DNA from: a virus
Lineage: Duplodnaviria; Caudoviricetes
Length of the DNA stretch: 64,000 nt
Direction: 5' to 3' (one strand)
Virus record (IMG/VR): IMGVR_UViG_3300042507_004106
In this document: positions 5,870 through 57,962 of the stretch, one piece after another
Layout: every line of letters starts with the position of its first letter
How positions within the stretch are numbered: the first letter of the stretch is position 1
Notes under the pieces: model-generated
Databases searched by the model: none
What the model saw: only the letters and a program-made list of their open reading frames with translations
Told to the model about the DNA's origin: nothing
Translations under genes and position numbers: made by a program

Positions 5870-7546
5870 TTAGACTCCTGGAAGTTGGATACCAGATCCA
5901 CCCATTCGTTTTACTGCTGCTCCAGCCGCTTGAGATTCAGAACCAGTTGATCCTTGTTGGAGTTTGGTTGCCTTTTCAATTCTCTGTAAGCGTCTGTGAG
6001 CCTCTGGATTGATTGGCTCGGGCATTGCACCTTCAACAATATCTTGAATGGTTTCCGAACTCAGCTCCATCATTACATAGAGAGCCTCTTCTAAGGTGTC
6101 TACGTGCCCCTGTGAGAAGAGATAATCAAGAATAATATCATAGGAGTCTTTGAGACCTAACATCGTCTTTGTTCTTGAACTCATCTTGGATTTCACGTCT
6201 GGAGAAGAATACATAGGACCAGATTGTGCTGCTTGACGTTCTTGAGATGCCTTTTGCATTTTTTTCAAATCCTCAATATCTTTTGAAATTGGTCTTGGTG
6301 CAGGCATTGCAGAACCACTCTTTGCAGCAGCAAGAATTGCACGTTGTTGCGAAGTACCAACTTTAGAAATCATAGGTTCGTTTGCCTTTGCCCAAGTTGA
6401 TAAATTCTTGGTTCTATCACCAGTTTGTGCTACAGGTTCTGCTTTTGTTGCTGCTGGTTTAGCAGGTTCTGGTTTTGTTGCTGCTGGTTTAGCAGGTTCT
6501 GGTTTTGTTGCTGCTGGTTTAGCAGGTTCTGGTTTTGTTGCTGCTGGTTTTTGTTGCGCTGCTTTCCTTGCAGCATCTTGCTTTGCTTTTTCTGCTTTAT
6601 GAGTTTCAATATCTTTTTCTATTTGTTTAGAACCTCTTCTTCTAGCATAATCTGCAGTAAGACGGTCTAACTCCTTTTTATCAAATGTTTTTGTATCAAT
6701 AGGAAACCAACCTTTAGGTGTTATAAAACCAGGTCTTCCACCTTTTAATGCAAAATCTCTACCTGTTGCCTCATCAAGCAATTCTCCACTATGATTATCA
6801 ACCATATCAAAATGATCATAACCTACAACTTTACCACCTAAAATTTTAAGGGATTTTTGGCTTGTTGGTTTTGGTTTTGCTGTTGCTGGTAGTTCTGGTA
6901 GTTTTGGTGGTTTAACATTTTTAATAGCATCTGCCGCTTTTTGTGGACTTGGGATATTGTGTGCCGCTTGCCTTGCACTTTGAACAGCTGCACCAACATA
7001 CTCTCTTCCTTTACCACCACTTATAAATTGATCCGCTGCAGCTGCTATACCAGTAGGAACTCCCCACTTACCCAATGTTTGAAGTGCTTTTTTAGCAGGT
7101 TCTTTTGCACCCTTCAATACATTACCTAAAACTTTTCCGCCAAGTCTTGCAGCACCCGAGAGTGCCCCTTTTGCTGCTTGTCTAGCACCTGCACCAAATA
7201 AAGTTCTACCAATTGCAGGAAGCACTGCACGGGCAGCAGCTCCTAAACCCAATCCAACCAAAGGTGCAATTTCATAAAGTTTTTGCATCTGCTCTTCAAT
7301 ATATTCTTCCGAAGATAAATTCTCAACAATCAAATCATCACTAGAATAATGATTAATATCCTCTATAAAAGTTTCATAATCAACATTTGCAAAATATTCA
7401 AGAACCTCAACCGCACTAGATCCATTAGAAATCAAGGTATATGCTATTGATTCAATTATTTGATTTTCTGTTACTTCTACATTTTCATAAATTGAAGCAT
7501 ATGTTTCTTTCAAACTACCAATTTCACCACCAGTAAGTCTAGACAT
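5870..7546 (-). CDS. Late accessory protein, modular, with conserved helical domain (candidate head-packaged polyprotein)
   Basis: TATAAATA at 7579-7572; domain YDIILDYLFSQGHVDTLEEALYVMMELS shared with 7629-8333 and 35201-36103; KPEPAKPAAT repeats. Confidence 0.8.
   Translation of the reverse strand: MSRLTGGEIGSLKETYASIYENVEVTENQIIESIAYTLISNGSSAVEVLEYFANVDYETFIEDINHYSSDDLIVENLSSEEYIEEQMQKLYEIAPLVGLGLGAAARAVLPAIGRTLFGAGARQAAKGALSGAARLGGKVLGNVLKGAKEPAKKALQTLGKWGVPTGIAAAADQFISGGKGREYVGAAVQSARQAAHNIPSPQKAADAIKNVKPPKLPELPATAKPKPTSQKSLKILGGKVVGYDHFDMVDNHSGELLDEATGRDFALKGGRPGFITPKGWFPIDTKTFDKKELDRLTADYARRRGSKQIEKDIETHKAEKAKQDAARKAAQQKPAATKPEPAKPAATKPEPAKPAATKPEPAKPAATKAEPVAQTGDRTKNLSTWAKANEPMISKVGTSQQRAILAAAKSGSAMPAPRPISKDIEDLKKMQKASQERQAAQSGPMYSSPDVKSKMSSRTKTMLGLKDSYDIILDYLFSQGHVDTLEEALYVMMELSSETIQDIVEGAMPEPINPEAHRRLQRIEKATKLQQGSTGSESQAAGAAVKRMGGSGIQLPGV
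6433..6550 (-). repeat. 30-bp coding tandem repeat x4 (KPEPAKPAAT)
   Basis: Plus-strand unit caggttctggttttgttgctgctggtttag starting at 6433, 6463, 6493 and 6523. Confidence 0.95.
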
Positions 7547-7628
7547 TTTTTGTTTTAGTTTCTTATAAAAATATTTATAAAAAAAGAGGGTGGTGAAACC
7601 CTCTTATATACCGGTTTGGAAAGTGATG

Positions 7629-8333
7629 TCAACCTTCAATAATAGACTTTTTCCAAGACTCACTCATATTTGCCATAATAACAAGTGCTGCTTCTTCAGT
7701 ATCAGCATAACCTTCATCAAGAAGGTGTCCTTTGATTACATCAAAAATATCAAAACTAGATTTTTGCAATTTAGATACAGCAGCGATAGCATCTTTCTCA
7801 ACATCTGCAGCACTTTTACCAGCAGATCTTGCCGCTGCTCTTGCTGCTGTTGCTGCTTTCAATTCTGCCGAAGTTAAAGTTCTTGGGGTAAAACCAAGAG
7901 GCTTAGGTGCTTCTGGTTTTGTTTTTGTTGTAGCGGGGGAAGAAGCAGGTCTAGGTGCTGTAGCAGCAGGTCTAGGTGCTGTAGCAGCAGGTCTTGTTGG
8001 TGCTGTAGCAGCAGGTCTTGTTGGTGCTGTAGCAGCAGGTCTTGTTGGTGCTGGTTGTCCAGGTCTCTGAAAAATAGGTGATAGTCCAGGTTGAACTGGC
8101 TTACCACCAACATTAAATCCACCAGGTCCAACAGTAACACCTTTAGGAGGGGGAGTAGTAGAAGGTCTTTTAAAAATAGGAGAAGGTCCAGATTTAACTG
8201 GTTTACCACCAATATTAAATCCACCAGGTCCAATTGTAAGACCTGTAGCTTCATCAATTTGCTCGACTTCTTCTTTTGTAGAGACTATATTATCCCACGC
8301 TTCGGATAAGTTACGAAGATCCTTTGAATCCAT
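7629..8333 (-). CDS. Late accessory protein with internal repeats and C-terminal EGYADT...MANMSE domain
   Basis: TATAAATA at 8361-8354; duplicated (I/V)GPGGFN(I/V)GGKPV..G.SPIF.RP; ends FDIFDVIKGHLLDEGYADTEEAALVIMANMSESWKKSIIEG. Confidence 0.8.
   Translation of the reverse strand: MDSKDLRNLSEAWDNIVSTKEEVEQIDEATGLTIGPGGFNIGGKPVKSGPSPIFKRPSTTPPPKGVTVGPGGFNVGGKPVQPGLSPIFQRPGQPAPTRPAATAPTRPAATAPTRPAATAPRPAATAPRPASSPATTKTKPEAPKPLGFTPRTLTSAELKAATAARAAARSAGKSAADVEKDAIAAVSKLQKSSFDIFDVIKGHLLDEGYADTEEAALVIMANMSESWKKSIIEG
7945..8052 (-). repeat. 21/24-bp coding tandem repeats (ATAPTRPA / ATAPRPA)
   Basis: gcaggtctaggtgctgtagca x2, then gcaggtcttgttggtgctgtagca x2 plus a partial copy. Confidence 0.95.
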
Positions 8334-8374
8334 TTTTACAAATACTTTTTAGTTATTTATAAAAAAAGAGGGTC

Positions 8375-8521
8375 TTAGCGACCCCCCATCCATTCTTTAA
8401 TGTAATCATAATCACCGAACAGAAATTCATCAGATTCTGCTGCTTCTTTATATGCGTTCAGGATTTCCTGTTCGCACCATTCATCATAATTGGAATCCTG
8501 AGAAAGTATCTTTGGTAACAT
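8375..8521 (-). CDS. Small acidic hypothetical protein (48 aa)
   Basis: MLPKILSQDSNYDEWCEQEILNAYKEAAESDEFLFGDYDYIKEWMGGR; the 114-aa track ORF is an upstream extension inside nrdB. Confidence 0.65.
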   Translation of the reverse strand: MLPKILSQDSNYDEWCEQEILNAYKEAAESDEFLFGDYDYIKEWMGGR

Positions 8522-12917: not shown

Positions 12918-12930
12918 TATGAAGAGGTTA

Positions 12931-13406: not shown

Positions 13407-13622
13407 TTATTTTTGCTTAAGATATTGCAACCACCACTTACGGGAATTTTTACCACCCTTAGCATAAGTCCTTTTTTTATCTTTTTTCCACACAGGAGGA
13501 GTACCAGTTTGAATATTATATCCAAGAGACTTTTCACCATTACCAACTACATTGGCAATTGCTCCTTCACCTTCCTCTTTAATAATGTGAATGATTTGAA
13601 TTAGTTTATCTACCTTATCCAT
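13407..13622 (-). CDS. Small hypothetical protein, basic C-terminus
   Basis: Start MDKVDKL overlaps the upstream stop (TGATG); IIKE|EG junction. Confidence 0.7.
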   Translation of the reverse strand: MDKVDKLIQIIHIIKEEGEGAIANVVGNGEKSLGYNIQTGTPPVWKKDKKRTYAKGGKNSRKWWLQYLKQK

Positions 13623-14002: not shown

Positions 14003-14770
14003 TCAGCTGTCTGGGAATAATGTATCATCAGGAGCATCAGTTGTGGTTAAAATTCCACCAGCAACTAATACTTCAGATTTAACTCTTAAGTTTCCGTGAG
14101 TATCAATATAAGTCATAATTCCAACCCACCCACTGTGAGCAACAGCATATTTAGTAGTTCTAGCAACTCCAACTTCAATCTGGTCTACACCAAAGACATC
14201 TCTAAAATATCCATCAGTCTTTCTTACAAATTGAATCACATCTCCGGTGGAAATTCCAACAGAGGTTGTCGATGCAAGACTTACAGTTGTTGCACCAATT
14301 GTAGAAATGACTAAGTTGCTTCCGCCATTTACAATTGCGTCACCTACAATTACATCTTTAGTTCCGACGACAACTGGAATAACATTAGTACCAATGCCAG
14401 CGTTAGTAGTGGCAGTTCCAGTTACACCAAAATTTTTGAAAGTAGCAACAGCATCATTTCTGTTGTTAAAACTACTATCACCTAAAGTATAAATTGGTTG
14501 CTCGTTAATGTTATATGCAACCGCAGGAATTGTAGTAATTCCAGTAATAAAATTAGCAGTGCTAGCTAATGAAATAGTTGTGGAAGTAAATCCAGTAATA
14601 ACTGCTTGACCGTAAGTGCCTCCAGTTCCTACACTGATAACATCGCCCGTTCGAATACCAGCAGAAGTCCAAGTTACGACTCCAACAACTCCAGTACCAA
14701 TTCCAGTAGAAAGATTTACTGCGATTGTTCCAAGACTATAAACCGAATCGTTATTGCCCCAAAGAGACAT
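14003..14770 (-). CDS. Probable virion structural protein
   Basis: TATAAATA at 14809-14802; Thr/Gly/Val-rich beta composition; C-terminal AHSGWVG..RVKSEVLVA. Confidence 0.65.
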   Translation of the reverse strand: MSLWGNNDSVYSLGTIAVNLSTGIGTGVVGVVTWTSAGIRTGDVISVGTGGTYGQAVITGFTSTTISLASTANFITGITTIPAVAYNINEQPIYTLGDSSFNNRNDAVATFKNFGVTGTATTNAGIGTNVIPVVVGTKDVIVGDAIVNGGSNLVISTIGATTVSLASTTSVGISTGDVIQFVRKTDGYFRDVFGVDQIEVGVARTTKYAVAHSGWVGIMTYIDTHGNLRVKSEVLVAGGILTTTDAPDDTLFPDS

Positions 14771-15086: not shown

Positions 15087-16682
15087 TCAGTCAAATCTTG
15101 ATGACATATTATCTTGCGCTCTTTGAGCAGCAGCACGACGCTTTGCTACTTTTTGAGCGGGAGATCTTGGTCCACCATATTCACCAGCTGCAGGTGGTTT
15201 TTTACCAGGAACTTTTTTACGCTGCCCTTCTGGTTTACCTTCCATTTTACGAATACCTTTTTTCACAATACGATATGCTTCATCAGGATTACCGCCACTT
15301 TTCCTTCCCTGTTCCCTTTCAAGACGGTTTAACTCATCAATTTGATCACCTTCTAGATCATAAGAACACTTAAGACCAATTGCTCTCAGTTTGTTTTTAG
15401 CAAGATTCATAGCAGTTGGAATTGAACGGGGATCCATTTCATCCTGTTCTTTCTTTGCTTTTTTATCTGCCTGAGCAACTGTTTCTTCTTTTACTGGTTT
15501 TGTTGGTTTTGTTTTTGCACTACCGAAAGTTTTTTGAAGTTTTTGTGGAAGTTCATCTACAAATTTATAAACCGAAGCTGGGACATTAGGAGCACTTCCA
15601 CCACCTTTTGGTTCTGCTGCTTCCTTATGAACTGGAAGTCCTTTGTGCTTGGTTTTTGCAAATTTCTTTGCTTCTTTTTTACTCATTCCTGCTGCTGCTT
15701 TTGCAACTTCAGGAGATGCTGGTTTTTCACCTTTCTTTGCAGCATAAACCATCCCCATAAACTTTTGTTGTGCCTGACTTACAGCCTTCTCAACAATGAA
15801 TGGACCTTCCATTTCGTGGTGAGCCATCATTGTTCCAACAGCTGCAGAATTTCTAGAAGCGCCAGGAATTGGTGGATTAATTACAACTTTATTTTTCCCA
15901 CTCATTGGTTTAATTTGCTTGTTATTAGCATCAGGATTTGATGCCTCACTATCCGCCTCACGAATAAACTCTTCCTTTTGAGTCTTTCTAGAAGCAATCG
16001 CAGCGCCGCGAGCCTTTCTACGATTCAAAAGATACTTATCAGACTTATCATGATCACCATCATTATCAATGTCCTTGTCTTCCTTACCAACTGGATCTAA
16101 ACCTTTACCTGCTTTTGCTCTTGCAGTTTGCTCACCTTTCTTTTTTTCACCCTCATAAGGTTCGCCATATCCAGTCATTTCAACAGATTCAATGTTTGGA
16201 TTTGCACGAAGATCATTAATTTTTTCACGAGTTGCATATCTTACATATGAGCGACCATCCTTTCCAGTAACCCTTACCTTATATTTTCTGTGCTCAGCAG
16301 TTTCTAACTTTTCCATGTAAGTTAGAACGATTGGTTCCTCTTCTTTCTGAACACCTTCCACAAATACTTTATAAAGTGCGTTAGCAACATTATCAGATGC
16401 AAACTCTCCGATATTAAAATCTTCTGCTTTCATTCCACCTTTACCAAATAACTTTTGCTTTACCAAAGTTTTTTCTTGCTGACTCATGCTGCTATTAGAC
16501 ATATATTGAGAATATGCCTGCTGAAGAGGTAATTCTTCTCTTCTAGCACGATAACGAATATCGTAAATCGCCTGCTTTACTCTTTTTTCTGGTGTCTTTC
16601 CACCTTTTTTGTCTTCTTTATCACCGGCAGCAGCTTGTGGGAACTTTCTTGCGGGAAGTTCTTCAGCAATATGTTTTTTCAT
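15087..16682 (-). CDS. Late, highly charged modular protein (candidate head-packaged polyprotein)
   Basis: Late-type CATAAATA at 16722-16715; Lys/Arg-rich modules separated by HIAE, FIRE, FIVE, PVKE and QIDE junctions. Confidence 0.8.
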   Translation of the reverse strand: MKKHIAEELPARKFPQAAAGDKEDKKGGKTPEKRVKQAIYDIRYRARREELPLQQAYSQYMSNSSMSQQEKTLVKQKLFGKGGMKAEDFNIGEFASDNVANALYKVFVEGVQKEEEPIVLTYMEKLETAEHRKYKVRVTGKDGRSYVRYATREKINDLRANPNIESVEMTGYGEPYEGEKKKGEQTARAKAGKGLDPVGKEDKDIDNDGDHDKSDKYLLNRRKARGAAIASRKTQKEEFIREADSEASNPDANNKQIKPMSGKNKVVINPPIPGASRNSAAVGTMMAHHEMEGPFIVEKAVSQAQQKFMGMVYAAKKGEKPASPEVAKAAAGMSKKEAKKFAKTKHKGLPVHKEAAEPKGGGSAPNVPASVYKFVDELPQKLQKTFGSAKTKPTKPVKEETVAQADKKAKKEQDEMDPRSIPTAMNLAKNKLRAIGLKCSYDLEGDQIDELNRLEREQGRKSGGNPDEAYRIVKKGIRKMEGKPEGQRKKVPGKKPPAAGEYGGPRSPAQKVAKRRAAAQRAQDNMSSRFD

Positions 16683-16691
16683 GAGTAAACT

Positions 16692-18008
16692 TTACTTCTT
16701 ACTTTTTCTATACTTATTTATGAAATCTCTTATATTATACCCGCGATATGCCTTTCCACCCGACTGAAGATTCTCTTCTCCAGTTCCAACAGCGCCTGGA
16801 GTCATATCAGAAGCGTATTTAAAATACCCAGAAGTTCCAACAAGAGTGTTTGGTTTACCAGGAAGTCTCATTTTTTTATCCATTCTAACTTCAGTATATT
16901 CGCTCAAATCTTTAATCCAAGACTTAAACATCTGACCAGATTCGGTTACACAAATTAGATAGTTAGTTCCTCTACGAATAATTCTACCGATTAAACCAGT
17001 ATTCAAATTCTCAACTTTCTCACCAAGTTTAAAAATAGATTCAGTAATATAATTTTCGCGGAGAGATTGGAAATCAAGCTTAGGGGCAATTTGCCAAATA
17101 TCCCAACCTTCTTTGATGCTCATTGCACCACGAAGAATATTAAAAAGTTCTTTTGCTTCTGCTGGTTTTACTTCTGGAGGAAGACCTGAACGGAAGGTTT
17201 TGAAATCATTCTCTGCTGCAGCAAGTCTCATTCTTGAAGCAGACATTCCTTCTACACCCTTTGCATCAGGGTCTCTATCGCCAGCAGAAACTACTTCAAT
17301 ATTATCAAAGTTATAAAGTTGACCATTATACTGATTGGAAAGTTTCTCAAATTCTTTTACTCTATCAGCACCACCGATAATTCTTACACCAGCATATCCA
17401 TTATTATGAGCCATTTTCAAGACATCAAAGATTGTCTTGGTATTTGCATCATTTACAATATTACCAGCATGTTGTGGATAAAATTTCTGCATATAACCAA
17501 TCTTAGTATCAGGATCCAATGGATTCTTTTTCTTGTCCTGACTCCTTGATGGAAAAATTAAATACTCACCATCTTTATCTTGAGATGCAGATTGTGCAGC
17601 AACGTCCATCAGTTGCTGGTGCCCAATTGTAGGTGGATTGAATCTACCAAAGGCAATAGTCAAAGTTCCTTTGGTTTTAGGAACAGGAAGATACTGTGCT
17701 GGTGGTTGCTCTTGTGCTGCTACCTGTGCTTCGGGAGCGGGTGCCTGTTGCTGTGGTTCCTGCTGTTGAGTAAGTGCAGGATCATTGTATCCAGGAGATG
17801 CAATTGTTTTTTCCTTTTCAGTCTGTGCCGGATCTTTACCGCCGACTTTTTGACGCTTATTATAGAATTTTAATTTTCCACCTTCAGTTTTTGCTACAAA
17901 TTCCCCTTGGCGGTCATACCATCCACCATGCCCATCACCGACAAGACCAAGACGCTGCGCCTGTTGAGATGCAGTTGCTTCTGATATGAATTGGAAAAAA
18001 TTTTTCAT
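16692..18008 (-). CDS. HIGH-superfamily nucleotidyltransferase (cytidylyltransferase/NMNAT-like) with CTS-like N-terminus
   Basis: FGRFNPPTIGH, IIGGADR, SAGDRDPD, GMSASRMR; N-terminus MKNFFQFISEA. Confidence 0.85.
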   Translation of the reverse strand: MKNFFQFISEATASQQAQRLGLVGDGHGGWYDRQGEFVAKTEGGKLKFYNKRQKVGGKDPAQTEKEKTIASPGYNDPALTQQQEPQQQAPAPEAQVAAQEQPPAQYLPVPKTKGTLTIAFGRFNPPTIGHQQLMDVAAQSASQDKDGEYLIFPSRSQDKKKNPLDPDTKIGYMQKFYPQHAGNIVNDANTKTIFDVLKMAHNNGYAGVRIIGGADRVKEFEKLSNQYNGQLYNFDNIEVVSAGDRDPDAKGVEGMSASRMRLAAAENDFKTFRSGLPPEVKPAEAKELFNILRGAMSIKEGWDIWQIAPKLDFQSLRENYITESIFKLGEKVENLNTGLIGRIIRRGTNYLICVTESGQMFKSWIKDLSEYTEVRMDKKMRLPGKPNTLVGTSGYFKYASDMTPGAVGTGEENLQSGGKAYRGYNIRDFINKYRKSKK

Positions 18009-19375: not shown

Positions 19376-19404
19376 ATTATATCACCTAACAGGCATGAGG
19401 TCAA
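19376..19404 (-). promoter_or_regulatory. sigma70-type promoter TTGACC-N17-TATAAT for tRNA-Ala/Leu
   Basis: -35 at 19404-19399, -10 at 19381-19376. Confidence 0.85.
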
Positions 19405-19789
19405 ATAGTTCTGGATAAAGTTGTCCATATTTTCTCATCAGTTCTCCTGCTTTTGCATTTGCCTGATTTTCTATTGGACTGCCGGCATGAGAACTCTTGC
19501 GGTCTAGACCTTTTTCCATATGTTGTTTGTAATGGATAAATTCATGGGCAAGAGTTCTCAGTATATCCATAGGATGACGATTGATGATACTCAAATGAAT
19601 TACATTTTCTTTTGAAATTTCACCAAATGCAGCGATGTGTTTAGCAAAATCTGCATCATCCACAAGAATGATTGGAATATCATAAGTAAGACGAAGTTCT
19701 CTTTTTAAGAAAGATTTAAACCTCTTAAGAATCAAATCTAATTGAATTCTTGTAGTCGGTCTTCCTTTATTTTTTCCAATCAAAGACAT
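19382..19789 (-). CDS. HExxH zinc metallopeptidase-like protein
   Basis: RTLAHEFIHYKQ and downstream IENQANA; late-type AATAAATA at 19807-19800. Confidence 0.65.
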   Translation of the reverse strand: MSLIGKNKGRPTTRIQLDLILKRFKSFLKRELRLTYDIPIILVDDADFAKHIAAFGEISKENVIHLSIINRHPMDILRTLAHEFIHYKQHMEKGLDRKSSHAGSPIENQANAKAGELMRKYGQLYPELFDLMPVR

Positions 19790-35200: not shown

Positions 35201-36103
35201 CTAGTCGTGCTCACCCATTGCCTTTTGTTTACGGAGTTTCTTAGCACTCTTAGTTACACCACCAGGACCCTCTGAAGGATAATCGTGGTCTTGACGAGTA
35301 CTTACACCATGAGCAGCACCTGCTCTTGCTCTCTCCCTATCATCAGAAGTCATTCCTTTTCTTGGGGAATCATCTGGAGTTCTATTAGCAGGATTAGTTC
35401 TTCTTAACATTTTCTTGAGGAAAGGCTTTCTCTTTGCAGTCATTCTAGTTTGTCTTGCTGCACCATATGCCTTTGGAGTAGCACCGTAGGAACCTTCTTC
35501 TTCATCTAGAACTTCTTCAACAATACTCTGCTTCCACTCTTCACTCATATTCGCCATAATAGCAAGAGCTGCCTTATTGGTGTCTGCGTAACCTTCGGCA
35601 ACTAGGTGCTCAAGGATGTAGTCAAAAAGGTCGGTTTCTTCTGCACGAAGTTTTGCTAATACTGCACCAGCAACTTTCTTACCACGCTCTTCGGAACCAT
35701 AACGCTTACCTGCTTCTTTAGCAATCTTTGCAAATGCTTTACCAGGCTTACCAATATCTTCGCCTGCCCTTGCTGCTTTTGCAGAGTATGTTGCTTCATC
35801 AAGTTCTCCAAGTGCTTTTGCTTTACGAACTTTATTTGGTCTTAACGCACCACCGTGTCCAGTTTCCCCATAAGCAGCATCTCTTCTTGCCGCTCTTTCT
35901 GGTGCTTTTTCTGGATTGTGAATACCTGCTCTGCGAGTAGGTGAAGTCTTTTCTGCTTCACGCTTATCTTTTTGCTTTTGACGACTTCTTTGTTGCTTGA
36001 AGTCTTTCATCGTCATACCTTCATCAAGTTGCTCTACTTCCTGTGAAGTATAAACAGAATTAAAGGCTTCTAGCAACCCAGCGTATTCTTTTTGAATATC
36101 CAT
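35201..36103 (-). CDS. Late accessory protein with EGYADT...MANMSEEW domain
   Basis: TATAAATA at 36131-36124; DLFDYILEHLVAEGYADTNKAALAIMANMSEEWKQSIVEE; basic modules after LDE sites. Confidence 0.8.
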   Translation of the reverse strand: MDIQKEYAGLLEAFNSVYTSQEVEQLDEGMTMKDFKQQRSRQKQKDKREAEKTSPTRRAGIHNPEKAPERAARRDAAYGETGHGGALRPNKVRKAKALGELDEATYSAKAARAGEDIGKPGKAFAKIAKEAGKRYGSEERGKKVAGAVLAKLRAEETDLFDYILEHLVAEGYADTNKAALAIMANMSEEWKQSIVEEVLDEEEGSYGATPKAYGAARQTRMTAKRKPFLKKMLRRTNPANRTPDDSPRKGMTSDDRERARAGAAHGVSTRQDHDYPSEGPGGVTKSAKKLRKQKAMGEHD

Positions 36104-36126
36104 TTTTATAAAGACTTTTTAGATAT

Positions 36127-36261
36127 TTATAAAAAAGAAGCGTCCCGTGAGAGACGCTTCTTGAGTGCTTGGCGACGTGCCTTTGCTTGTCGGAGTGCTT
36201 GCGGTTTGAGTTTCCGCTTCTGCTCCTTTTTACTGTGATGCTGCCAGTTTGGAGTGTTCAT
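36127..36261 (-). CDS. 44-aa very basic peptide (not in ORF track)
   Basis: MNTPNWQHHSKKEQKRKLKPQALRQAKARRQALKKRLSRDASFL*; has its own box plus promoter (36283-36332); the stop lies inside TATAAATA. Confidence 0.75.
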   Translation of the reverse strand: MNTPNWQHHSKKEQKRKLKPQALRQAKARRQALKKRLSRDASFL

Positions 36262-36917
36262 TGGTCTTGTGTTGATGTGGATAGATTACTATCTGCATTT
36301 ACGGAAGTCAAGGAGTCCAGTTGAGAAAGTGTCCTATTCTTATATCTGTTTAGTGCTGCCTGCCTTATTTTTTCTTTTGCTTCTGGTGAGTGGGTTTTAC
36401 CTTTCATAGGATTATTCTCACACATTTTTAAACTCATATTTTTTTTAAACTCATCACTTTGAGTTTTACCATACATTCCATTTTTTTCTCCAGAATTTTT
36501 TCTTCTGGGATCACCTTTCATTTTTTCAATAGTTTCTTGGGAATGTTTTTTTCCCAACATAGGTGGCGTCTTTTCTTTTAATTTTTCTATTGTTTCTGGG
36601 GAGTGTTTCCAACCAGAATTTATAGTCATTCCTCCACCACCAAGAGAAACATTTAATAAATTAGAATTTTCAGAAATATATTTTATTTCTAAGTTTTCAA
36701 TATAAGAAGCATCTTCACTTTGTTCCAAAATAGATAGTTCAAAATTTTCAATCCCGTATTTTCTAATAGAATTATAAAATTTGGGACAGTCATTTTTCTT
36801 TTTTTCAGTTTTATATGCATACTGATGTTTTTTCCACCTTTCTTCTGGTTTAAGAGAAGTTATACCGATGTATTTTTGCCCTGTAATTTTATTCTCAATG
36901 CAATAAAGACTATACAC
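36258..36917 (-). mobile_element. Free-standing GIY-YIG homing endonuclease with NUMOD3-like repeats
   Basis: SLYCI..KYIGIT..RWKKH, FYNSIRKYG, LNVSLGG; repeats GWKHSPETIEK, GKKHSQETIEK, GKTHSPEAKEK; GTG start after TATAAATA; AT-rich. Confidence 0.88.
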
Positions 36918-42486: not shown

Positions 42487-43014
42487 TCATCTCTTATAAC
42501 CTTGCGATCTCCTCTCAGCGTAATATTTTTTAAGAGACTCACTTTTCTTTCTTTTTTCTTCTTCACTTTGTTTTTGACCTGTTCTACTTTTATTACCTTT
42601 CCCTATTTCAGATAATTTTTGTCTTGTTTCTTCACTGTGAGTTTGTGCGCCGACTAGACCTTTATTCCATACTGACCTGCCTTTGTGCGCCTCAGACATT
42701 TTTTTCTTACTTTCTTCTGTATGTTTTTTTCCTTTCATACAAGCAAACCCCCTTTCTCCACCCTCAGTAACATTTACTAATATTCCTCCATCAATTTTTC
42801 TACCATATTTTAAAATAAGTTCTTTTTCTTTTTCAAGAGCAAGTTCTTCTGTAAGGTTATTCAATAAAATAACTATTCTATCTTTTTCTGGAATATTTAC
42901 AAATTTGTGTGTTTTTTTATTTTTTTGGTACGCTCTTCTTCCAGTACCTTTTCCAATATAATAAGGACTTCCATCTTCTCTTAAATAAGCATAAACATAA
43001 AAATCGCTTCTCAT
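42487..43014 (-). mobile_element. Free-standing GIY-YIG homing endonuclease with NUMOD3-like repeats
   Basis: FYVYAY..PYYIGKG, LVNVTEGG, GKKHTEESKKKMSEAHKG, THSEETRQK, GQKQSEEEKRK; own TATAAATA at 43043-43036. Confidence 0.88.
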
Positions 43015-44042: not shown

Positions 44043-44573
44043 TTACCTCTTATTGGGTTTTACCTTTGCTGTTTGCGAATCTTGAGCAGTTTTCACATAA
44101 ATTGTTTTCTTTCCAAAATCTCTTGATGTAATTTTTGGATTTCCCGAAACATCTCTAGCTGTCTGTAACGCTAAATCGTAACTTGTTGACTTATTATAGT
44201 TTCCAGCAGGTCCAAAATTACCAGTGTCTGATACTTTAGTTGTTGCTATGGGTGCCTTTGTCCCTGGAGCCATCGTCATTTGTAGTTTTGTACCAAATGG
44301 AGTTGATGGTTTATTACTAGTTCTAGATGCATATGGGACAGCGACTAATCGTTGCTTATCATTAAAACGTTCTCCACTAGCAGTTAATGAACCTGGGGTG
44401 TCTGCTTTACTATAAGAACTAACATTTACGGGTTTCCACCCATATCTCTTTTGCTCAACATCGCTATGAGGTTTTGATGTAAATTTTCCAGTTTTCTTAT
44501 CAAGAACTCCTGGTTTATAGTTTTTATATGCTAAAACTTGAGCTTCTGATAAAAACTCTTTAAACGTTTTCAT
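44043..44573 (-). CDS. RlpA-like (double-psi beta-barrel) protein with CTS-like N-terminus
   Basis: MKTFKEFLSEA; SSY..LTASGERFN..VAVP..PFGTKL..KVSDTG..YDLA; TCTAAATA at 44592-44585. Confidence 0.7.
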   Translation of the reverse strand: MKTFKEFLSEAQVLAYKNYKPGVLDKKTGKFTSKPHSDVEQKRYGWKPVNVSSYSKADTPGSLTASGERFNDKQRLVAVPYASRTSNKPSTPFGTKLQMTMAPGTKAPIATTKVSDTGNFGPAGNYNKSTSYDLALQTARDVSGNPKITSRDFGKKTIYVKTAQDSQTAKVKPNKR

Positions 44574-44641: not shown

Positions 44642-46045
44642 TCACATCAGGTTAGCAACCTTGACTCTTCTGTAGTAGGTGTTAGCATTGGTGGTCAGAG
44701 CACCAGCGCCTGGGGTAAGACCCTCAGCGAATGGGTTAGCAACCATTCCGTAACGGGTCTTAAAGCCGATCTTAGGCTGGAAGGTGTTCTCGCCAACGGC
44801 ACGTACCATCTGGAGAGGTACATATGGGCAATAGAACAGACCAGCATCGTATGGGCTAGAACCCTTATAACCAACAACATAGAACTGGTTAGGTGCTACG
44901 TTTGCCGAATATGGGTCAATGTATACGCGATACTTACCTTGGAGAACACCAGCGAAGGTGTTACCGGTGTCGTCAACGTTCAGGTTAGCGTTGAGTGCAG
45001 GGGTGTAATCGAGAACACCAGCCATTGCAAGTGCCGAAGCAACGTCAGCAGAGCAAAGGATAGTGTTACCCTTTCCTCTACGAGTTTGCTGAGCAATCGC
45101 GTTAGCGTCGCGCTCGATCTGGAAGATCAGACCCTTGAACTTCTCAACCGACCAACGACCGTTGGAGTCAACGTCGAGGTCAAAAGTACCAGCGGTAGCG
45201 GTATTGACTTGAGCACCAGGCTTAGCAATCTTGTAGATGGTTCTGATAACTTCGCGGTTGATCTCAGCAAGAATCTCAGTTGAGAGAATGTTTGCGAGTT
45301 CAGCCTCAGCATTCAGACCGTGGATTGCCTTGAGGTCCTGAGCAAGCTCAAGTGAGTACTCAGCCTTGAGGGCGCGTGACTTAGCGGTTACAGTGACCTT
45401 CTCGATTGAGAATGCCATCTGGTTGAACTGATCAGATTCGCCAAGCGATTCTGCGTTGTCAGTTCTCATTCCTTGACCAACGTTATAAGCACTGTCGCCA
45501 GGAGCAGCGTTATTTGCTTGGTTGCTTGGATCTAGAACTGATGGATTTGATCCGCGCTGAGCGGTAGTACCCATACCAACAGCACCGTTTGTCCAACCTT
45601 CGGTCTGGTCGAACGATGCACTTTGACCAGAGAATGCCGAATCTACTTCGTTGTAGAAAGTTTCGGTTCCAGACTGGTTGGTGTAACGTGAACGCATTGC
45701 GAAGATCAGTCCAGTAGGACCGTTCATTGGTTGAACGCCGCAGAGATCATAGGCGATCAGGTTAGGCATCGAACGACGGATCAGTGAGATCAGTACGGGA
45801 TCGAAACCTTGCATAGCACCGGTGCTTGCAGCACTAAATCCAGTACCAGCTCCAGTGCTGGTTCCGGTGCTATTGGTTGGGGACTCATAGAGGAACTCAC
45901 GCTCTTCGCGGATGGTTCTCTCTTGGTTTTCGAGCAGGATTGCGGTTACAGCTCTACGATGTGAATCTTTGATAGGATCAAGACCATCATAGTCGAGGAG
46001 CGGTGCCCACTTCTCCTGCAGATGCTCGGTATTGAACATTTGCAT
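44642..46045 (-). CDS. gp23: Major capsid protein
   Basis: EKWAPLLD, LISLIRRSMP, GVQPMNGPTGLIFAMRSRY, EINREVIR, YCPYVPL, FQPKIGFKTRYG. Confidence 0.98.
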   Translation of the reverse strand: MQMFNTEHLQEKWAPLLDYDGLDPIKDSHRRAVTAILLENQERTIREEREFLYESPTNSTGTSTGAGTGFSAASTGAMQGFDPVLISLIRRSMPNLIAYDLCGVQPMNGPTGLIFAMRSRYTNQSGTETFYNEVDSAFSGQSASFDQTEGWTNGAVGMGTTAQRGSNPSVLDPSNQANNAAPGDSAYNVGQGMRTDNAESLGESDQFNQMAFSIEKVTVTAKSRALKAEYSLELAQDLKAIHGLNAEAELANILSTEILAEINREVIRTIYKIAKPGAQVNTATAGTFDLDVDSNGRWSVEKFKGLIFQIERDANAIAQQTRRGKGNTILCSADVASALAMAGVLDYTPALNANLNVDDTGNTFAGVLQGKYRVYIDPYSANVAPNQFYVVGYKGSSPYDAGLFYCPYVPLQMVRAVGENTFQPKIGFKTRYGMVANPFAEGLTPGAGALTTNANTYYRRVKVANLM

Positions 46046-46092: not shown

Positions 46093-47247
46093 TCACTTTT
46101 TAGAAACTCTTTGGAGAGTCTGAAGATATGCACTCATTGTGCTTCCAACTTCTTGAGCATTGCTCATATCTGTTGATTCAGACAGATTTTCACTAGCGTT
46201 TCTTTGAGTACCAGCAGTTCTGGTTGAGAAATAAGATTCTCTCAGAGTTACTAGCTTCTCACGATAGCTCTCTTCACCATCAAACTCAACATTTTCGGCA
46301 AGAGAAGCGAGTTTGTCCTTCTGAGAAAGTGCAAGACCCTCAGCGACTTCTGCAAAGATTACATCAGCAACCGACTCGGCTAATCTTCTATTCAGAGCAA
46401 CATTTCTTTCAATTTGCTCGTTGAGTTTTTCTTCCATTTCATCAAGTTTATCTACCATACTCTCGATAACATCATATCTATCTTCAGGGATTGTTACATA
46501 ATGATCTTCAAAAAGACTCTTCATTCCTGCAAGGAATGATTCGGTCATTTCAGTCTTAAGACCGTGCTCAACTGCGAGTGCATTCTCTTGAATCCACTCA
46601 TCAGCAACATACTCAAGGTATGCATCAACACGCTCAGTAAGACCTTCTTTAATTTGAGCAATCTCTTCAATAAGAGTTGCTTCATACTTTGATTCTAGAT
46701 CTTCTTTGATTTCAGCAACCTTAGATTTGATTGCTGCTTCGAAGATGGTACGTGCTTTCTCTTGGAATTCCTCAGAAAGCTCTTCACCTGCAAGAAGAGC
46801 ATTAACATCCTCTTCGATGTCGAACTCTTCTTCCATTTTCTTTTTCTTACCACCCTCTTCCTCTTCTTCTTCCTCCTCTTCTTCTTCCTCTTCCTCTTCT
46901 TCGTGCTTAGCTTCGGTTACTTCCTCTTCACCGATTTCTAGATCTTCTTCATCTTCGACAAGATCCTCTTCATCTTCAACCTCTTCCTTAGCAAGAGATT
47001 TCATTGGCTCGGCAGCTGCTGCTTTAGCATTAACTACATTTCTCACTTGAGCAAGAGTTGCGCCTGGAGTTTTGAGTGCTGCAGACCCGTCATCTGGACG
47101 ATAGTTTTCTGGTGTAGGACCACCAAGATCTTCCCAACCACCAGTCTGTCCTGGAGTTGCTCCATCCAGGTGATGCATTGGTTCGGCAGGTGCAGCCCCT
47201 TTGGTTACTACGTTTTCCATTTCTTGTAAATTTCTACCAACGGACAT
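46093..47247 (-). CDS. gp22: Prohead core scaffold protein
   Basis: Acidic linker, LSEEFQEKARTIFEAA, YLEYVADEW, position between gp21 and gp23. Confidence 0.93.
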   Translation of the reverse strand: MSVGRNLQEMENVVTKGAAPAEPMHHLDGATPGQTGGWEDLGGPTPENYRPDDGSAALKTPGATLAQVRNVVNAKAAAAEPMKSLAKEEVEDEEDLVEDEEDLEIGEEEVTEAKHEEEEEEEEEEEEEEEEGGKKKKMEEEFDIEEDVNALLAGEELSEEFQEKARTIFEAAIKSKVAEIKEDLESKYEATLIEEIAQIKEGLTERVDAYLEYVADEWIQENALAVEHGLKTEMTESFLAGMKSLFEDHYVTIPEDRYDVIESMVDKLDEMEEKLNEQIERNVALNRRLAESVADVIFAEVAEGLALSQKDKLASLAENVEFDGEESYREKLVTLRESYFSTRTAGTQRNASENLSESTDMSNAQEVGSTMSAYLQTLQRVSKK

Positions 47248-47286: not shown

Positions 47287-47937
47287 TTAAAGATTTGAAA
47301 GAAAATCTTGGAACATTTGAACTTTATGTTCCTGGAGTGTTCTTTCATCAATTAGAGTGTTAATTCTACGCTTTGTAGATTCTGCTAGTCTTTCACGAAG
47401 GATTCCTCCTTCCCAGACCCACTCTTTACCTTCCATAATTCCCTGAACAAAAGCGTCAGGGGCAGAAGGATCGGCAACGATGTCAGCAGCAGTTGCTAGC
47501 ATAAAATCTTCGCCAACAATTTTATGACCCTCATTGGTCATCTTGAGTGATCCTACACCACGAGAAGAAACACCTAAGCAAACACCTTCATCGATAAGTG
47601 ATTTTGCAATCTTACCCATCGGGGTTTCAAGAAGTTGTGCTTTTCCTCTGAAATTGTTTCCTTCCCTAGTAAGAGAAACAATCTTATGAGAAACGCGATC
47701 AAGATTTACTGTTGGACCATCTGGGTGTCCAAGTTCTCCAAGAGCGCGACCTTTGTTGATAAAGGATTCTGTATATCTCTGAACTTCGCGAGAGAGTGTC
47801 TCCATAGGATACATTCTTCCGTTACGGTTACAGATATCACCTTGAAGGAAAACACCTTCAATATACATTTTCTTTTGAGATCCTTTTCCTTCGGTAATAA
47901 ATTCTACCTTTGAAATTTCTTCTGTGATGAGTTTCAT
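47287..47937 (-). CDS. gp21: Prohead protease
   Basis: MKLITE, NRNGRMY, GELGHP (His), GVSSRGVGS (Ser), DIVADPSAP. Confidence 0.97.
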   Translation of the reverse strand: MKLITEEISKVEFITEGKGSQKKMYIEGVFLQGDICNRNGRMYPMETLSREVQRYTESFINKGRALGELGHPDGPTVNLDRVSHKIVSLTREGNNFRGKAQLLETPMGKIAKSLIDEGVCLGVSSRGVGSLKMTNEGHKIVGEDFMLATAADIVADPSAPDAFVQGIMEGKEWVWEGGILRERLAESTKRRINTLIDERTLQEHKVQMFQDFLSNL

Positions 47938-47939: not shown

Positions 47940-48467
47940 TTATTCGGAAACTAGTTGAACGACTTCTGTAATACTTAGATTTGTTGAACCGCCAACTGCA
48001 AGAGCTGAAACTTTTACACTTCTGGATAAAGTAGATCCTGTTGCTGTAATTACACCAACTACAGTTGAAGTATTTGCGGCAATCGTAACTGTACTATCTG
48101 TTATAGAAGTTACTAATTGATGAACAGTATTAATACCTGCAGGTTGAGCATTTTCAATCGTTACATAATCTCCAACCAGGAATGGATTTCCTGCATTATT
48201 ATCAAAAGTAACCACTGTTGTTGTTCCAGTAGTGATTCCAGCAATTTGCTGCTTTGCAAGTCTCTCTTTCAAAACTTCATTTGCGAAAGGAGAAATAAGC
48301 AATGAATTAACAGTAGCTACAGGATCGCCACCAGTTTCTACATATGCTGCAGTGGATCCAGCAGCAACTCTAATGTAACCACTTTTGAGGGCAATTGGAT
48401 CACTTGTAGTCGCTGTGGAAACCGTTGGTGAAATTCTATTTACATTTTGAACGATTTTTATCGCCAT
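47940..48467 (-). CDS. Probable virion structural protein
   Basis: Thr/Val/Ala-rich beta composition; late-type TATAAATA at 48667-48660. Confidence 0.7.
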   Translation of the reverse strand: MAIKIVQNVNRISPTVSTATTSDPIALKSGYIRVAAGSTAAYVETGGDPVATVNSLLISPFANEVLKERLAKQQIAGITTGTTTVVTFDNNAGNPFLVGDYVTIENAQPAGINTVHQLVTSITDSTVTIAANTSTVVGVITATGSTLSRSVKVSALAVGGSTNLSITEVVQLVSE

Positions 48468-50357: not shown

Positions 50358-50388
50358 TTTATAAACTTAATACCTTGTTATATACTAT

Positions 50389-50979: not shown

Positions 50980-51001
50980 AGTTGTTAAACCTCTAGGTTA
51001 A

Positions 51002-53152: not shown

Positions 53153-53212
53153 CTTTATTCTCCGTCTATCCAGAATTATTCTAAAAGTATTTATAATTTC
53201 CTATGGTTTAAT

Positions 53213-54907: not shown

Positions 54908-54913
54908 AATAAG

Positions 54914-56224: not shown

Positions 56225-56227
56225 AAA

Positions 56228-56536
56228 TTACTCACCCCACGATAATCTTTCTGGTCTGTATCTTTCTGCGTTTTTAACTTTTATAGAAGTAGATTCTGCT
56301 GGATAGATATTATGAACTATCGCTCCAGGATATTCTTTTTGCAGTTGCTCTGCAAGTTGATTTTTATCCATCATCTTACCTTCAACTTCCATACGATATA
56401 ATCTTCCTTGCCAAACTACATCTGCAAGAAAAGATTCGGTTGCTGTCTCTGGTTGAGATGAATTCATATAGAGATTTCCATTGAAATCTCCAGCAATATT
56501 GATACTTTCTGAAATGAATTGTTGAAAAGATTTCAT
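56228..56536 (-). CDS. Small protein with CTS-like N-terminus
   Basis: MKSFQQFISE|S. Confidence 0.75.
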   Translation of the reverse strand: MKSFQQFISESINIAGDFNGNLYMNSSQPETATESFLADVVWQGRLYRMEVEGKMMDKNQLAEQLQKEYPGAIVHNIYPAESTSIKVKNAERYRPERLSWGE

Positions 56537-56537
56537 T

Positions 56538-57962
56538 TTAGTTGCAGTTCCAACGACGGAGGGCTTTGTTGATTCTGGAATCTGGATCTCTTGCAGTTTT
56601 TGTGGAAGTCAGTTTTGATTTCATTCCAGACATACGACGGCAGAATGAAGCACGACGTTTTGCTCTTTTACCTTCTGGATTTTTTTCAGTTACTGCAGTT
56701 TGAAGTTTTGAACCTGGATTCTCGCGACGATATGCATTAACTGCTTTTTGACTTAAACCATCAGTCTTATCTTGACGATTAACTTTTTGCCAGTCTTCCG
56801 ATAATCCAAAGTCTGCTCTCCAGTTTGAATATTCCTCTACCTTCATTTCACCACTATCGATATAATCTGCGGCAGCATCAATATAATCTGCTGCTTTAGT
56901 AATTTTTGATTGAACCCACGCTTCAATATTACCTTCGCCCTTCATTTTTTTACGAAGTCTCTTTGCAGCAGAGATGATTGTAGAAATTTCTGAGCGAGCC
57001 ATTGAGTGCTCATGATCATAAGACTCTGGAAAATTACCAGGATGTACAGTTGCGATATTATATTTTAATTGATTAGTTGTTAGTGCTGAAGGAATTGAGA
57101 ACATATCCCAATACTTTGGTCCATATTTGCACTCACTTCTAGTTTCATCTTTTTTGCATTTTGGACAATATCTGATCATTGATTGTTCCTCCTTTACTGG
57201 TACACAATTTGGGACCATTTTTTTACCTTTTTTCTTCATTCCTTCTTGCTTATATCCATCCCAACAATCTTCTGATTTAGTTCCCCAGTTAGCAGCACCA
57301 ACCTTACGGCACTTAACCAATGCTCCTGATGCATATGCACTTGGCCAAACATCATATCTAGATTTTACTTTTTGATAACAAGCATCTTTCTTACCACTAC
57401 CCTTGCCTGGTTTATCTTTAACTTCTTGTAAGTTCATTTCTTCAGTTCTTACGTTTGTTGGTTTAGCGCCACCAGTTTTTTCTGGTTGATTTGGATCTAA
57501 TCTATTTTTTCTTCTTCTTGCCGCCTCTTCTTCATCTTTAGACAAAGATCTTTTCATTTTTGAACTTCCGCATTTTGGAGTAGAAGTTTGACCTGGTTGA
57601 CGGGCACAAGGTTTACCTGCCCATTTTCCACCTAACTGAACCCACCCCCTTTTACCATCAGATGATTTAGATTTATTAAACCAATCGTGAAGACCTTGAT
57701 CCCCAGAAGTAGTTTCTTCTTTCACATCCTTAAACTTTTTATGATGCTTTTTAGCATCTGACTCCATTTTTTTCAAACGAGTATAATAATCTGGAATTTC
57801 ATCTAGATGTTGAAGAGCAATATCTGTAGCAAGATCTTTATCTCTAGTATGCTCGTGCTCAATAGGAATTCCCATTTCAAGTTGCTTTCTTATGAAAGAA
57901 GCATCTAAGCGATGTTTCTTCGCAATTTCTTCAACTGTTTTATGGGGTTTGACCTTATGCAC
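56538..57962 (-). CDS. Late multi-module basic protein (candidate polyprotein)
   Basis: GTG start after TCTAAATA (57996-57989); several discrete His/Cys-containing modules bounded by x-x-E sites. Confidence 0.8.
   Translation of the reverse strand: MHKVKPHKTVEEIAKKHRLDASFIRKQLEMGIPIEHEHTRDKDLATDIALQHLDEIPDYYTRLKKMESDAKKHHKKFKDVKEETTSGDQGLHDWFNKSKSSDGKRGWVQLGGKWAGKPCARQPGQTSTPKCGSSKMKRSLSKDEEEAARRRKNRLDPNQPEKTGGAKPTNVRTEEMNLQEVKDKPGKGSGKKDACYQKVKSRYDVWPSAYASGALVKCRKVGAANWGTKSEDCWDGYKQEGMKKKGKKMVPNCVPVKEEQSMIRYCPKCKKDETRSECKYGPKYWDMFSIPSALTTNQLKYNIATVHPGNFPESYDHEHSMARSEISTIISAAKRLRKKMKGEGNIEAWVQSKITKAADYIDAAADYIDSGEMKVEEYSNWRADFGLSEDWQKVNRQDKTDGLSQKAVNAYRRENPGSKLQTAVTEKNPEGKRAKRRASFCRRMSGMKSKLTSTKTARDPDSRINKALRRWNCN

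Follow-up and report, generated by a model that had tools for sequence, protein, structure and literature searches.

The window analyzed here, a 64,000-nucleotide stretch of viral DNA (IMG/VR record IMGVR_UViG_3300042507_004106), is by its sequence that of a T4-like cyanomyovirus whose nearest isolate is Synechococcus phage S-SRM01, and all of its long open reading frames (ORFs) lie on the minus strand. Eight accessory ORFs, which an initial annotation sorted into three classes, are the subject of this study. In T4, targeting of internal proteins to the prohead by a capsid targeting sequence (CTS) and their processing by the protease gp21 are textbook knowledge, and the annotation proposed that the eight products are head cargo of the same kind: class I with a CTS-like leader, class II with a different leader, and class III as chains of small modules separated by candidate cleavage sites. 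All eight are on the minus strand, with coordinates and N-termini as first described. Each ORF is named below by the position of its start, and a slash follows the Glu at which cleavage is predicted.

16692-18008, minus strand: class I, 438-residue NMNAT/cytidylyltransferase-like protein (ORF 18008); leader MKNFFQFISE/A; Pfam CTP_transf_like, 3e-05; phrog_395, 4e-101.
44043-44573, minus strand: class I, 176-residue double-psi beta-barrel (DPBB) protein of RlpA-like fold (ORF 44573), directly after gp23; leader MKTFKEFLSE/A; AlphaFold2 pLDDT 82.
56228-56536, minus strand: class I, 102-residue protein of phrog_1742 (ORF 56536), one base after the stop of a class III gene; leader MKSFQQFISE/S.
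35201-36103, minus strand: class II, 300-residue protein (ORF 36103) with more than 2,700 homologues; leader MDIQKEYAGLLEAFNSVYTSQEVEQLDE/G, then the modules GMTMKDF, SYSAKAARAG, EGYADT and GSYGATPKAY, each of which is found directly behind the leader in some other protein.
7629-8333, minus strand: class II, 234-residue protein (ORF 8333); leader MDSKDLRNLSEAWDNIVSTKEEVEQIDE/A, Pro/Ala-rich repeats and a C-terminal EGYADT domain with 67% identity to the C-terminal domain of S-SRM01 gp269.
5870-7546, minus strand: class II, 558-residue protein (ORF 7546), homologous to S-SRM01 gp271; MSRLTG-type leader, Gly/Ala-rich hydrophobic segment (residues 94-125), PAATK repeats and an EGH-type C-terminal domain.
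56538-57962, minus strand: class III, 474-residue protein (ORF 57962) of about seven small basic or Cys-pair modules, DUF5661 to DUF6321, by Pfam and PHROG; between gp16 and gp17; GTG start, leaderless.
15087-16682, minus strand: class III, 531-residue modular protein (ORF 16682), directly after the nucleotidyltransferase gene; N-terminus MKKHIAE/E; DUF3008 (Pfam), a DPVGxEDxDxDNDGD module and several PHROGs.

The class I leader, hereafter the tag, is like the T4 CTS, as had been claimed. A six-frame search over every possible start, restricted to the 64 kb of the window, finds only the three named ORFs beginning MK[NTS]FxxF[IL]SE, and the DNA pattern for M-K-x-F-x-x-F-[ILVFM]-x-E matches three times, against 0.00 expected from 100 shuffles. 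In the T4 record, IPI begins MKTFKEFTSTTTPVSTITE, while IPII and IPIII begin MKTYQEFIAE/A, as the annotation had stated; residues 1-7 of ORF 44573 (MKTFKEF) are identical to those of IPI, and its FLSE/A end is like the FIAE/A of IPII and IPIII. Ten residues of the T4 CTS are enough for packaging; residues 4 and 7 are the main determinants of targeting, processing depends on residues 8 and 10, and Asp at position 10 stops processing and leaves targeting intact (PMC9026906). All three class I ORFs have an MKT[YF].EF-like start and a propeptide length within the 10-19 residues known from T4, ending in (L/I)-x-E (ISE, LSE and ISE at residues 8-10), and the class I families carry aromatic residues at 4 and 7, the T4 targeting determinants.

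Conservation within the families follows the same positions. In 21 homologues of the 102-residue protein, M1, K2, F4, F7 and E10 are invariant, and one homologue has an 8-residue insertion that doubles the site (FINE-SKAETLSE/SVNIAGDF). The RlpA-like family begins MK[TS][FY]xxF in 119 of the 120 homologues listed, with M1, K2 and F7 invariant and position 4 always F or Y (119/119). Hydrophobic-x-E occupies residues 8-10 in 18 of these 119, two residues ahead of the mature domain; another 99 are non-canonical at residue 8 or 10, mostly with Cys8 and Asp or Gln10, and 97 of those 99 have a substitute hydrophobic-x-E at 13-16 (NIQE, QVQE; Cys allowed in the first position). The two placements mirror the short (IPII/III) and long (IPI) propeptides of T4. 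These comparisons support a true correspondence between the class I leader and the T4 CTS. Docking of the 102-residue leader protein onto the gp22 scaffold domain gave a score of 0.00, which is evidence neither way.

An MKxFxxF start could instead have been selected because it favors the initiation of translation, or because it binds another partner common to these proteins, for example a chaperone. As is typical of efficient starts, the second codon is AAA in almost every case and the region is rich in A and T. The conservation, however, is at the protein level, with synonymous variation in the codons (TTT/TTC, CAA/CAG/GAG, ATA/ATT/TTA), the invariant positions are those mapped genetically for T4 targeting, and neither the compensatory shift of the cleavage site nor the remnants of the tag inside longer proteins, described below, would make sense for a translation signal. 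Moreover, a relaxed tag pattern finds 9 of 9 matches on the coding strand in three other phage genomes, as against one match of the reversed control in five genomes. We regard this explanation as highly improbable.

The tag is widespread. Scanning IMG/VR with the back-translated tag gave at least 122 matches on at least 120 contigs, approximately 95% of them at ORF starts with a short open stretch upstream, and 94 of 120 tag-bearing contigs also carry other T4-like cyanophage genes. In this sample the cargo behind the tag falls into approximately 45 BLAST clusters, including NMNAT-like proteins, the 102-residue family, small nucleotidyltransferases, HAD-like proteins and many of no named function. 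Whole phage records contain four tagged genes in S-SRM01, three in DSL-LC03 and two in S-SCSM1, every one of them on the coding strand; the control pattern gave 0-1 matches. The annotated start of the DSL-LC03 RlpA-like gene (WJZ47987.1, L003:1291-1974) overlaps the end of gp23; by comparison with the family, in which 119 of 120 homologues begin in this way, translation almost certainly starts at the internal MKSFNQFCKDANIQE.

The three tagged proteins of the window differ in what can be said of their function. ORF 18008 is a nucleotidyltransferase, as proposed: PF01467 matches residues 118-220 at 24.7 bits (cut-off 21), and the (H/T)xGH motif is present as TIGH in FGRFNPPTIGH. Its close metagenomic relatives begin MK[SNTR]F..F in 119 of the 120 listed, those listed being at least 79% identical, and a search with the nucleotidyltransferase region returned at least 8,000 candidates. 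The protein consists of a conserved N-terminal domain and a small C-terminal domain, the latter also found as a separate tagged gene (loci L139 and L065). For ORF 44573, the best Foldseek match is 4avr_A (PA4485; E 8e-6, template-modelling score by target (TMt) 0.76), followed by kiwellin, expansin, cerato-platanin, designed DPBBs and a baseplate protein of cyanophage A-1(L), and no Pfam family, DPBB_1/RlpA included, matches at E <= 1. The initial assignment as RlpA-like is thus borne out by the modelled DPBB fold and not by a sequence profile, and we call the protein RlpA-like in fold only. TASG and DTGNFG, which we take to resemble RlpA motifs, are invariant in its family. The 102-residue protein is predicted to form a small alpha/beta domain, and a fold search gave no significant structural neighbor, the best being T7 Gp2 (E 0.12, 47 residues). 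For the mature protein, the best non-significant neighbors are the T7 Gp2 RNA polymerase inhibitor (TM 0.64 by target) and the Gp2-like YkzG, in which the predicted structure offers a weak lead to a possible host-polymerase binder.

Relatives of several of these proteins have been detected in purified virions. For S-SM1, Sullivan et al. 2010 list a putative cytidylyltransferase, T4-GC190, with 25 counts, together with T4-GC119 (13), T4-GC1454 (10) and T4-GC1455 (7) (PMC3037559, Table S8). We find that T4-GC190 is SSM1_190, which starts MKKFSAFLNE/A and is 41% identical to ORF 18008; T4-GC119 is SSM1_115, a homologue of ORF 57962 with its modules in another order; T4-GC1454 is SSM1_191, which directly follows the transferase and has the DNDGD module in common with ORF 16682; and T4-GC1455 is SSM1_192, which starts MLSFKELQE. 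NMNAT is also part of the S-SCSM1 virion proteome, and NMNAT-like proteins occur in virions of two estuarine Synechococcus phages, one of them S-CBWM1 (PMC9602691). Among the S-SCSM1 proteins flagged as virion proteins, ORF91 starts MKSFLQFLKE/A and is 47% identical to ORF 18008, ORF29 is 42% identical to ORF 57962 over 471 residues, ORF92 carries the DNDGD module and ORF93 is a free-standing DUF3008 module. In other words, the claim of packaging in the virion finds support from homologues of the nucleotidyltransferase and of both class III proteins, all in relatives.

Both class III proteins have their Pfam and PHROG matches on separate short stretches (DUF5661, DUF6321, DUF3008 and many small PHROGs), and the boundaries between these stretches have a recurrent feature. 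Six modules of ORF 57962 were traced through anchor motifs, using every frame of the window, S-SRM01, S-SM1 and the fetched loci. Among the distinct 12-residue windows that lie ahead of a module, 82 of 99 contain [LIVMF]-x-E, as compared with 38.8 +/- 4.6 in composition-preserving shuffles (maximum 51 in 500), and 64 of 74 do so once the junctions are thinned to contexts less than 40% alike (29.5 +/- 3.8; maximum 43 in 1,000). The coincidence of module boundaries in homologues with such sites, which the annotation had proposed as a check, is thus far more frequent than in shuffled controls. The junction Glu mostly lies 1-3 residues ahead of the module's first conserved residue, and the neighboring modules differ widely. 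The DUF3008 and DPVGxEDxDxDNDGD modules of ORF 16682 are likewise mostly preceded by hydrophobic-x-E elsewhere (FVVE/K, SLEE/K, AVEE/A, KVSE/A).

The same modules also occur alone or directly behind the tag. L103 and L107 encode proteins that are 62% and 57% identical to residues 4-230 of ORF 57962 and begin MK[PT]FSQF[IL].E/ATDP, whereas other genes consist of the tag and a single module, namely DUF6321 only in L106 and L093 and the DHEHSM module only in L063 and L102; in L102 and L119 the tag stands directly ahead of the CWxGY module. In L103, L107, L020 and S-SCSM1 ORF29, the class III chain has at its C-terminus a module related to the 102-residue protein, after VEE, VSE, VDE and IEE. Remnants of the tag are visible at internal junctions, as in S-SM1_115 (GNLSFQDFQE/KAMKCWKGYE) and L078 (GITFQQFQE/KCWKGYE), which points to an origin of the chains in the fusion of tagged genes. 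S-SCSM1 ORF93 (L141:5127-5336) has a tag-like C-terminus, ending KKKRTFKEFLEYIE, and reads as if a stop codon had severed a downstream tagged module.

Does the junction motif mark sites of cleavage? The proteins might be virion components that lose at most their leaders, with the chains remaining intact and the motif reflecting acidic linkers, helix starts or a sequence used in module recombination. Glu is abundant in the junction windows, so that the baseline in shuffles is 40-50%, the reverse motif is mildly enriched too (37 of 74 as against 29.4 in shuffles, and 42 as against 30.9 in the class II set below), and hydrophobic-x-E is frequent in all proteins of this phage: the 78 ORFs of the window contain 472 copies, 1.19 times the number in shuffles, as the annotation had cautioned. 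Against intact chains, six unrelated modules of class III and five of class II have the motif ahead of them in many different neighbor contexts, and the stretch 19-30 residues upstream seldom contains it (9 of 74). The variety of its sequences (VKE, LQE, IDE, FPE) speaks against a recombination linker at the DNA level. Moreover, when a module stands alone the leader cleavage site takes the same place, and leader remnants persist at internal junctions. We consider uncut chains rather unlikely.

Class II proteins share a leader that is unrelated to the tag. It is strictly N-terminal and approximately 25 residues long, begins M[DS], contains GL.EAY..VY.PQE..[LI][DE]E and ends in [LIV]-[DE]-E. All three ORFs have both features ascribed to this class, the N-terminal motif and the EGYA[DE]T domain. 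ORF 36103 matches no Pfam family, and 93 of the 120 relatives listed have both the motif and an EGYA domain. A scan of IMG/VR for GLMEAYxxVY gave at least 120 contigs, in which the motif lies 7 (MDxKELRGL) or 10 (MSRLTGxDAxGL) residues after the start Met in 117 of 123 occurrences; other genes of this phage type are present on 117 of 120 contigs, the class II gene often lying beside mazG, gp41 or the NMNAT gene. Modules such as GMTMKDF, SYSAKAARAG, GSYGxTPKAY, TAMAKRGYDE and LDTPEKANEY follow the leader in one protein and lie internally after [LI]-x-E in others, and at thinned class II junctions hydrophobic-x-E is present in 48 of 60 (31.0 +/- 3.4 in shuffles; maximum 40), the EGYA domain being less regular. 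Two members of the family, P0119 and P0076, join a class II module with DUF3008, a module of S-SM1_115 and the N-terminal 120 residues of S-SCSM1 ORF92. These mixtures indicate that classes II and III, which the annotation had treated as separate kinds, draw on one shuffled module pool.

Class II proteins might nevertheless be abundant late proteins that are not cargo, such as tail or baseplate accessories, lysis or membrane proteins, or assembly factors, with an N-terminus that serves another purpose. No phage with a readable virion protein list has a homologue, the leader has no demonstrated T4 counterpart, ORF 7546 contains its Gly/Ala-rich hydrophobic segment, and just 11 phage records in the collection carry the family (S-CREM1 ORF219 is one homologue). 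On the other hand, P0119 and P0076 combine class II modules with portions of virion proteins (the ORF92 N-terminal region, the DUF3008 of ORF93 and a module of SSM1_115), the leader ends in [LI][DE]E and the same motif recurs between modules, and the genes have perfect late promoters and often, in 36 of 120 loci, adjoin the cluster of virion-protein genes that surrounds the NMNAT gene. We therefore judge a non-cargo role unlikely, if still to be taken seriously. The Gly/Ala-rich segment of ORF 7546 reaches a Kyte-Doolittle maximum of 1.58, and segments of similar composition are found in S-SRM01 gp271 and in two proteins with the class I tag, S-SRM01 gp270 and a DSL-LC03 ORF; the comparison with these tagged proteins gave no sequence homology, the architecture alone being alike. 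From their composition, such segments may be membrane-active pieces of ejected proteins.

The annotation had also placed the cargo genes under late-type promoters. The motif TATAAATA occurs 12 times on the coding strand of the window and not at all on the other strand, nine copies being 20-35 nucleotides before a start codon, and it precedes all three class II genes as well as gp22, gp18 and a gp67-like gene. The class II copies are as follows.

7572-7579, minus strand: late-type promoter TATAAATA, 25 nucleotides before the start at 7546, behind a hairpin and T-run.
8354-8361, minus strand: late-type promoter TATAAATA, 20 nucleotides before the start at 8333, behind a hairpin and T-run.
36124-36131, minus strand: late-type promoter TATAAATA, 20 nucleotides before the start at 36103, behind a hairpin and T-run.

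The claim holds in full for class II, with its perfect TATAAATA copies, and in modified form for ORFs 18008 and 16682, which have NATAAATA upstream; ORF 44573 has only an imperfect CTAAATA behind a terminator, and ORFs 56536 and 57962 are without a promoter of their own, inside the gp16-gp17 operon. The G+C-rich hairpin, T-run and TATAAATA approximately 20 nucleotides before the start form the same cassette at 7547-7628, 8334-8375 and 36104-36160 (minus strand), and from this repetition the terminator-promoter unit seems to travel with class II genes.

The presumed processing enzyme and its partners in head assembly are encoded in the same window.

47287-47937, minus strand: gp21 prohead protease; Pfam Peptidase_S77, 1e-36; N-terminus MKLITE/E.
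46093-47247, minus strand: gp22 scaffold (prohead core); Pfam T4_CASP, 3e-81; 29 hydrophobic-x-E sites.
44642-46045, minus strand: gp23 major capsid protein; Pfam Gp23, 3e-152, domain from residue 79; candidate maturation site EFLYE/S.

The His of GELxHP and the Ser of GVSSRG in gp21 align with the T4 gp21 residues that we take to be H85 and S140, so that an S77 protease and the tags occur in one genome. The catalytic triad of the T4 enzyme is His/Ser/Asp (PMC5694885). As the annotation noted, gp23 and gp21 themselves contain the site: the gp23 site ([FI]L.E; FLSE/A, ILTE/T or FLYE/S among relatives) and the N-terminal LI[TA]E of gp21 are both kept in S-SRM01 and S-SM1. A 716-residue product at 32972-35122, annotated as a peptidase in relatives, was considered as an alternative processing enzyme and dropped, having no Pfam match.

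We suggest that this phage probably applies the T4 scheme of head loading and maturation to a large, shuffled set of accessory proteins. On sequence comparison, the tag MK[TSN][FY]xxF, followed by hydrophobic-x-Glu at residues 8-10 or otherwise 13-16, is the counterpart of the T4 CTS and, if T4 genetics is a guide, would bind the prohead core during assembly and be removed after Glu by the S77 protease gp21. A second tag heads class II, and classes II and III are module chains from one pool, in which the same modules occur in varied order, alone, behind either tag or untagged, and when fused nearly all have hydrophobic-x-Glu a few residues ahead of them. Going by the virions of relatives, the nucleotidyltransferase and class III-type chains would be packaged here as well. 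We infer that gp21 would then cut the chains at their junctions inside the prohead, and that the small, mostly basic proteins and the enzymes (NMNAT-like and RlpA-like) would stay with the DNA and enter the next host in the manner of the T4 internal proteins and Alt. Core binding, cleavage, head location, injection and any packaging of class II are thus predictions from sequence.

Several observations weigh against this scheme. The junction windows counted above come from related sequences, so that z-scores overstate their independence, and the presence of the motif does not predict cutting because it is common throughout the proteome. The RlpA-like domain does avoid hydrophobic-x-E, with 3 copies as against 67 expected across 119 related sequences; this is the only case of depletion. 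The window proteins and the NMNAT-like and 102-residue families show none (ratios 0.7-2.8), and some seven copies lie inside the NMNAT-like protein. The junction Glu could be part of the module fold or of an acidic linker. With respect to packaging, S-SCSM1 ORF30, a leader-bearing homologue of the 102-residue protein, is not flagged as a virion protein in its record; conversely, the virion-detected class III homologues (SSM1_115, S-SCSM1 ORF29 and ORF93) are leaderless, like the two in the window, and the class I leader is therefore not required for entry. None of the phages whose virion protein list was readable has a class II homologue. Finally, virion proteomics does not separate head from tail.

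A more ambitious form of the proposal is that T4-like cyanophages encode a combinatorial library of small injected effectors, in which two interchangeable tags load the prohead and the head protease frees each module; this is possible, but we hold it to be doubtful. On this same library model, and just as tentatively, genes would fuse or split at the tag or cleavage site, and each strain would deliver its own cocktail to act in the first minutes of infection. The cocktail might, for instance, act against host defences or on NAD metabolism, with the NMNAT-like transferase, the wall-active beta-barrel and the Cys-pair modules among its members.

The closest precedent for the head-loading scheme is T4 itself, with its internal proteins IPI, IPII and IPIII, and Alt, which carry the CTS. 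The points of likeness are the MKT[YF].EF tag (of IPI and IPII/III), the critical positions 4 and 7 and the (L/I)-x-E site, after whose Glu gp21 cuts in T4. The short (10-residue) and long (19 residues in IPI) propeptides, the diverse, fast-evolving cargo and the position of the protease gene beside the scaffold and capsid genes are also alike. Unlike in T4, the cyanophage tag is found on dozens of cargo families, including enzymes and multi-module chains; there is a second, unrelated leader of approximately 25 residues, the polyproteins have repeated sites, some virion homologues are untagged, and the system is known from sequence. In phiKZ, 201phi2-1 and SPN3US a gp21-like protease cuts many head and ejection proteins after Glu in [A/S/G]-x-E, and the propeptides may incorporate cargo (PMC5694885). 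The T4-type prohead protease and putative cargo propeptides are common to these phages and ours, but their P3 residue is small rather than hydrophobic, their propeptides often exceed 100 residues, and the proteins are large rather than strings of mini-modules. T4 gp22, gp67 and gp68 are cut by gp21 into small peptides (PMC5694885). They resemble class III in having many (L/I)-x-E sites in one gene product, which there are cut inside the prohead; their fragments, however, are assembly debris that mostly leaves the head, whereas the modules here are conserved and folded-looking (Cys pairs, DUF5661, DUF6321, DUF3008) and also exist as separate genes.

Two further systems invite comparison. T7 gp16 is an internal core protein with a lytic transglycosylase domain that is ejected ahead of the DNA, while T4-type phages carry the wall-cutting gp5 on the tail tip. 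A head-packaged RlpA-like protein would resemble T7 gp16 in placing a peptidoglycan-active domain in the capsid, although fold and phage family differ and the RlpA-like activity is putative. The polyvalent proteins of Iyer et al. 2017 are reportedly long chains in which many small effector domains of unrelated kinds follow one another, and it has been proposed that they accompany the DNA into the host and in some cases undergo processing; they are said to be very large, with recognizable enzymatic domains and often a (Zn-) protease of their own. To our knowledge, neither a T4-type address tag nor a regular hydrophobic-x-Glu junction has been described for them, and with class II and III proteins of 234-558 residues and small non-enzymatic modules they are an analogy only.

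Our search found no open-access paper linking the CTS with cyanophages, paywalled virion studies of Syn9 and S-PM2 being outside it. The NMNAT-like enzyme and many unknown proteins in cyanophage virions have repeatedly puzzled authors (PMC3037559, PMC9602691). The tag would explain how they could enter, and would supply a sequence rule for predicting packaged cargo from metagenomes, giving a role to very large unnamed families such as class II (more than 2,700 matches) and the nucleotidyltransferase (at least 8,000 candidates). If the junctions are cut, these are polyproteins maturing inside the capsid. That way of expressing genes would be unusual in a DNA phage, and the set would probably hold early host-takeover or anti-defence proteins in reserve. 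T4-like cyanophages are among the most abundant viruses of the ocean and lakes, and the tag could be used to load foreign proteins into their heads, as done in T4.

The remaining genes of the window are in keeping with its assignment. DNA identity over the gp21-gp22-gp23 block is 80.6% to S-SRM01 and approximately 72% to P-SSM2, S-SKS1 and other Kyanoviridae, and the genes follow the order seen in S-SRM01 and S-SM1: gp13-gp16, an insert, gp17-gp23, uvsY/uvsW, gp46/47, gp43, uvsX and gp41, then mazG, a variable cluster, primase and nrdAB. The position of T4 gp68 is occupied by a 175-residue ORF (47940-48467, minus strand) that does not resemble gp68. It belongs to DUF7243 (1e-37), and inspection by eye suggests a likeness to SSM1_114 (T4-GC403), an abundant S-SM1 virion protein with 60 peptide counts that is absent from T4. 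From this likeness it is probably a capsid-associated protein.

A 71-residue ORF at 13407-13622 (minus strand), MDKVDKLIQIIHIIKEE/GEGAIANVVGNG with the end KKDKKR, is like the small tagged ORFs of L026 and L075 and the small virion proteins S-SCSM1 ORF97 and SSM1_197, in which a Gly/Thr-rich stretch ending GFDPVL or YDPLL copies the N-terminal arm of mature gp23; by this resemblance it may be another small head protein. The 255-residue Gly/Thr/Val-rich ORF at 14003-14770 (minus strand) lies behind a perfect TATAAATA and is without a leader. It is homologous to S-SCSM1 ORF95, an annotated tail fiber protein that is also flagged as part of the virion, and its N-terminus is like that of SSM1_195 (T4-GC425, 17 counts). 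Adjoining mazG, a 135-residue ORF (19382-19789, minus strand) has a sub-threshold Peptidase_M78/IrrE match (21.7 bits; cut-off 22). Three homing endonuclease genes of GIY-YIG/NUMOD3 or SegE type (36258-36917, 42487-43014 and 5336-5776, minus strand) are inserted beside candidate cargo and structural genes, and the one starting at 43014 has its own TATAAATA.

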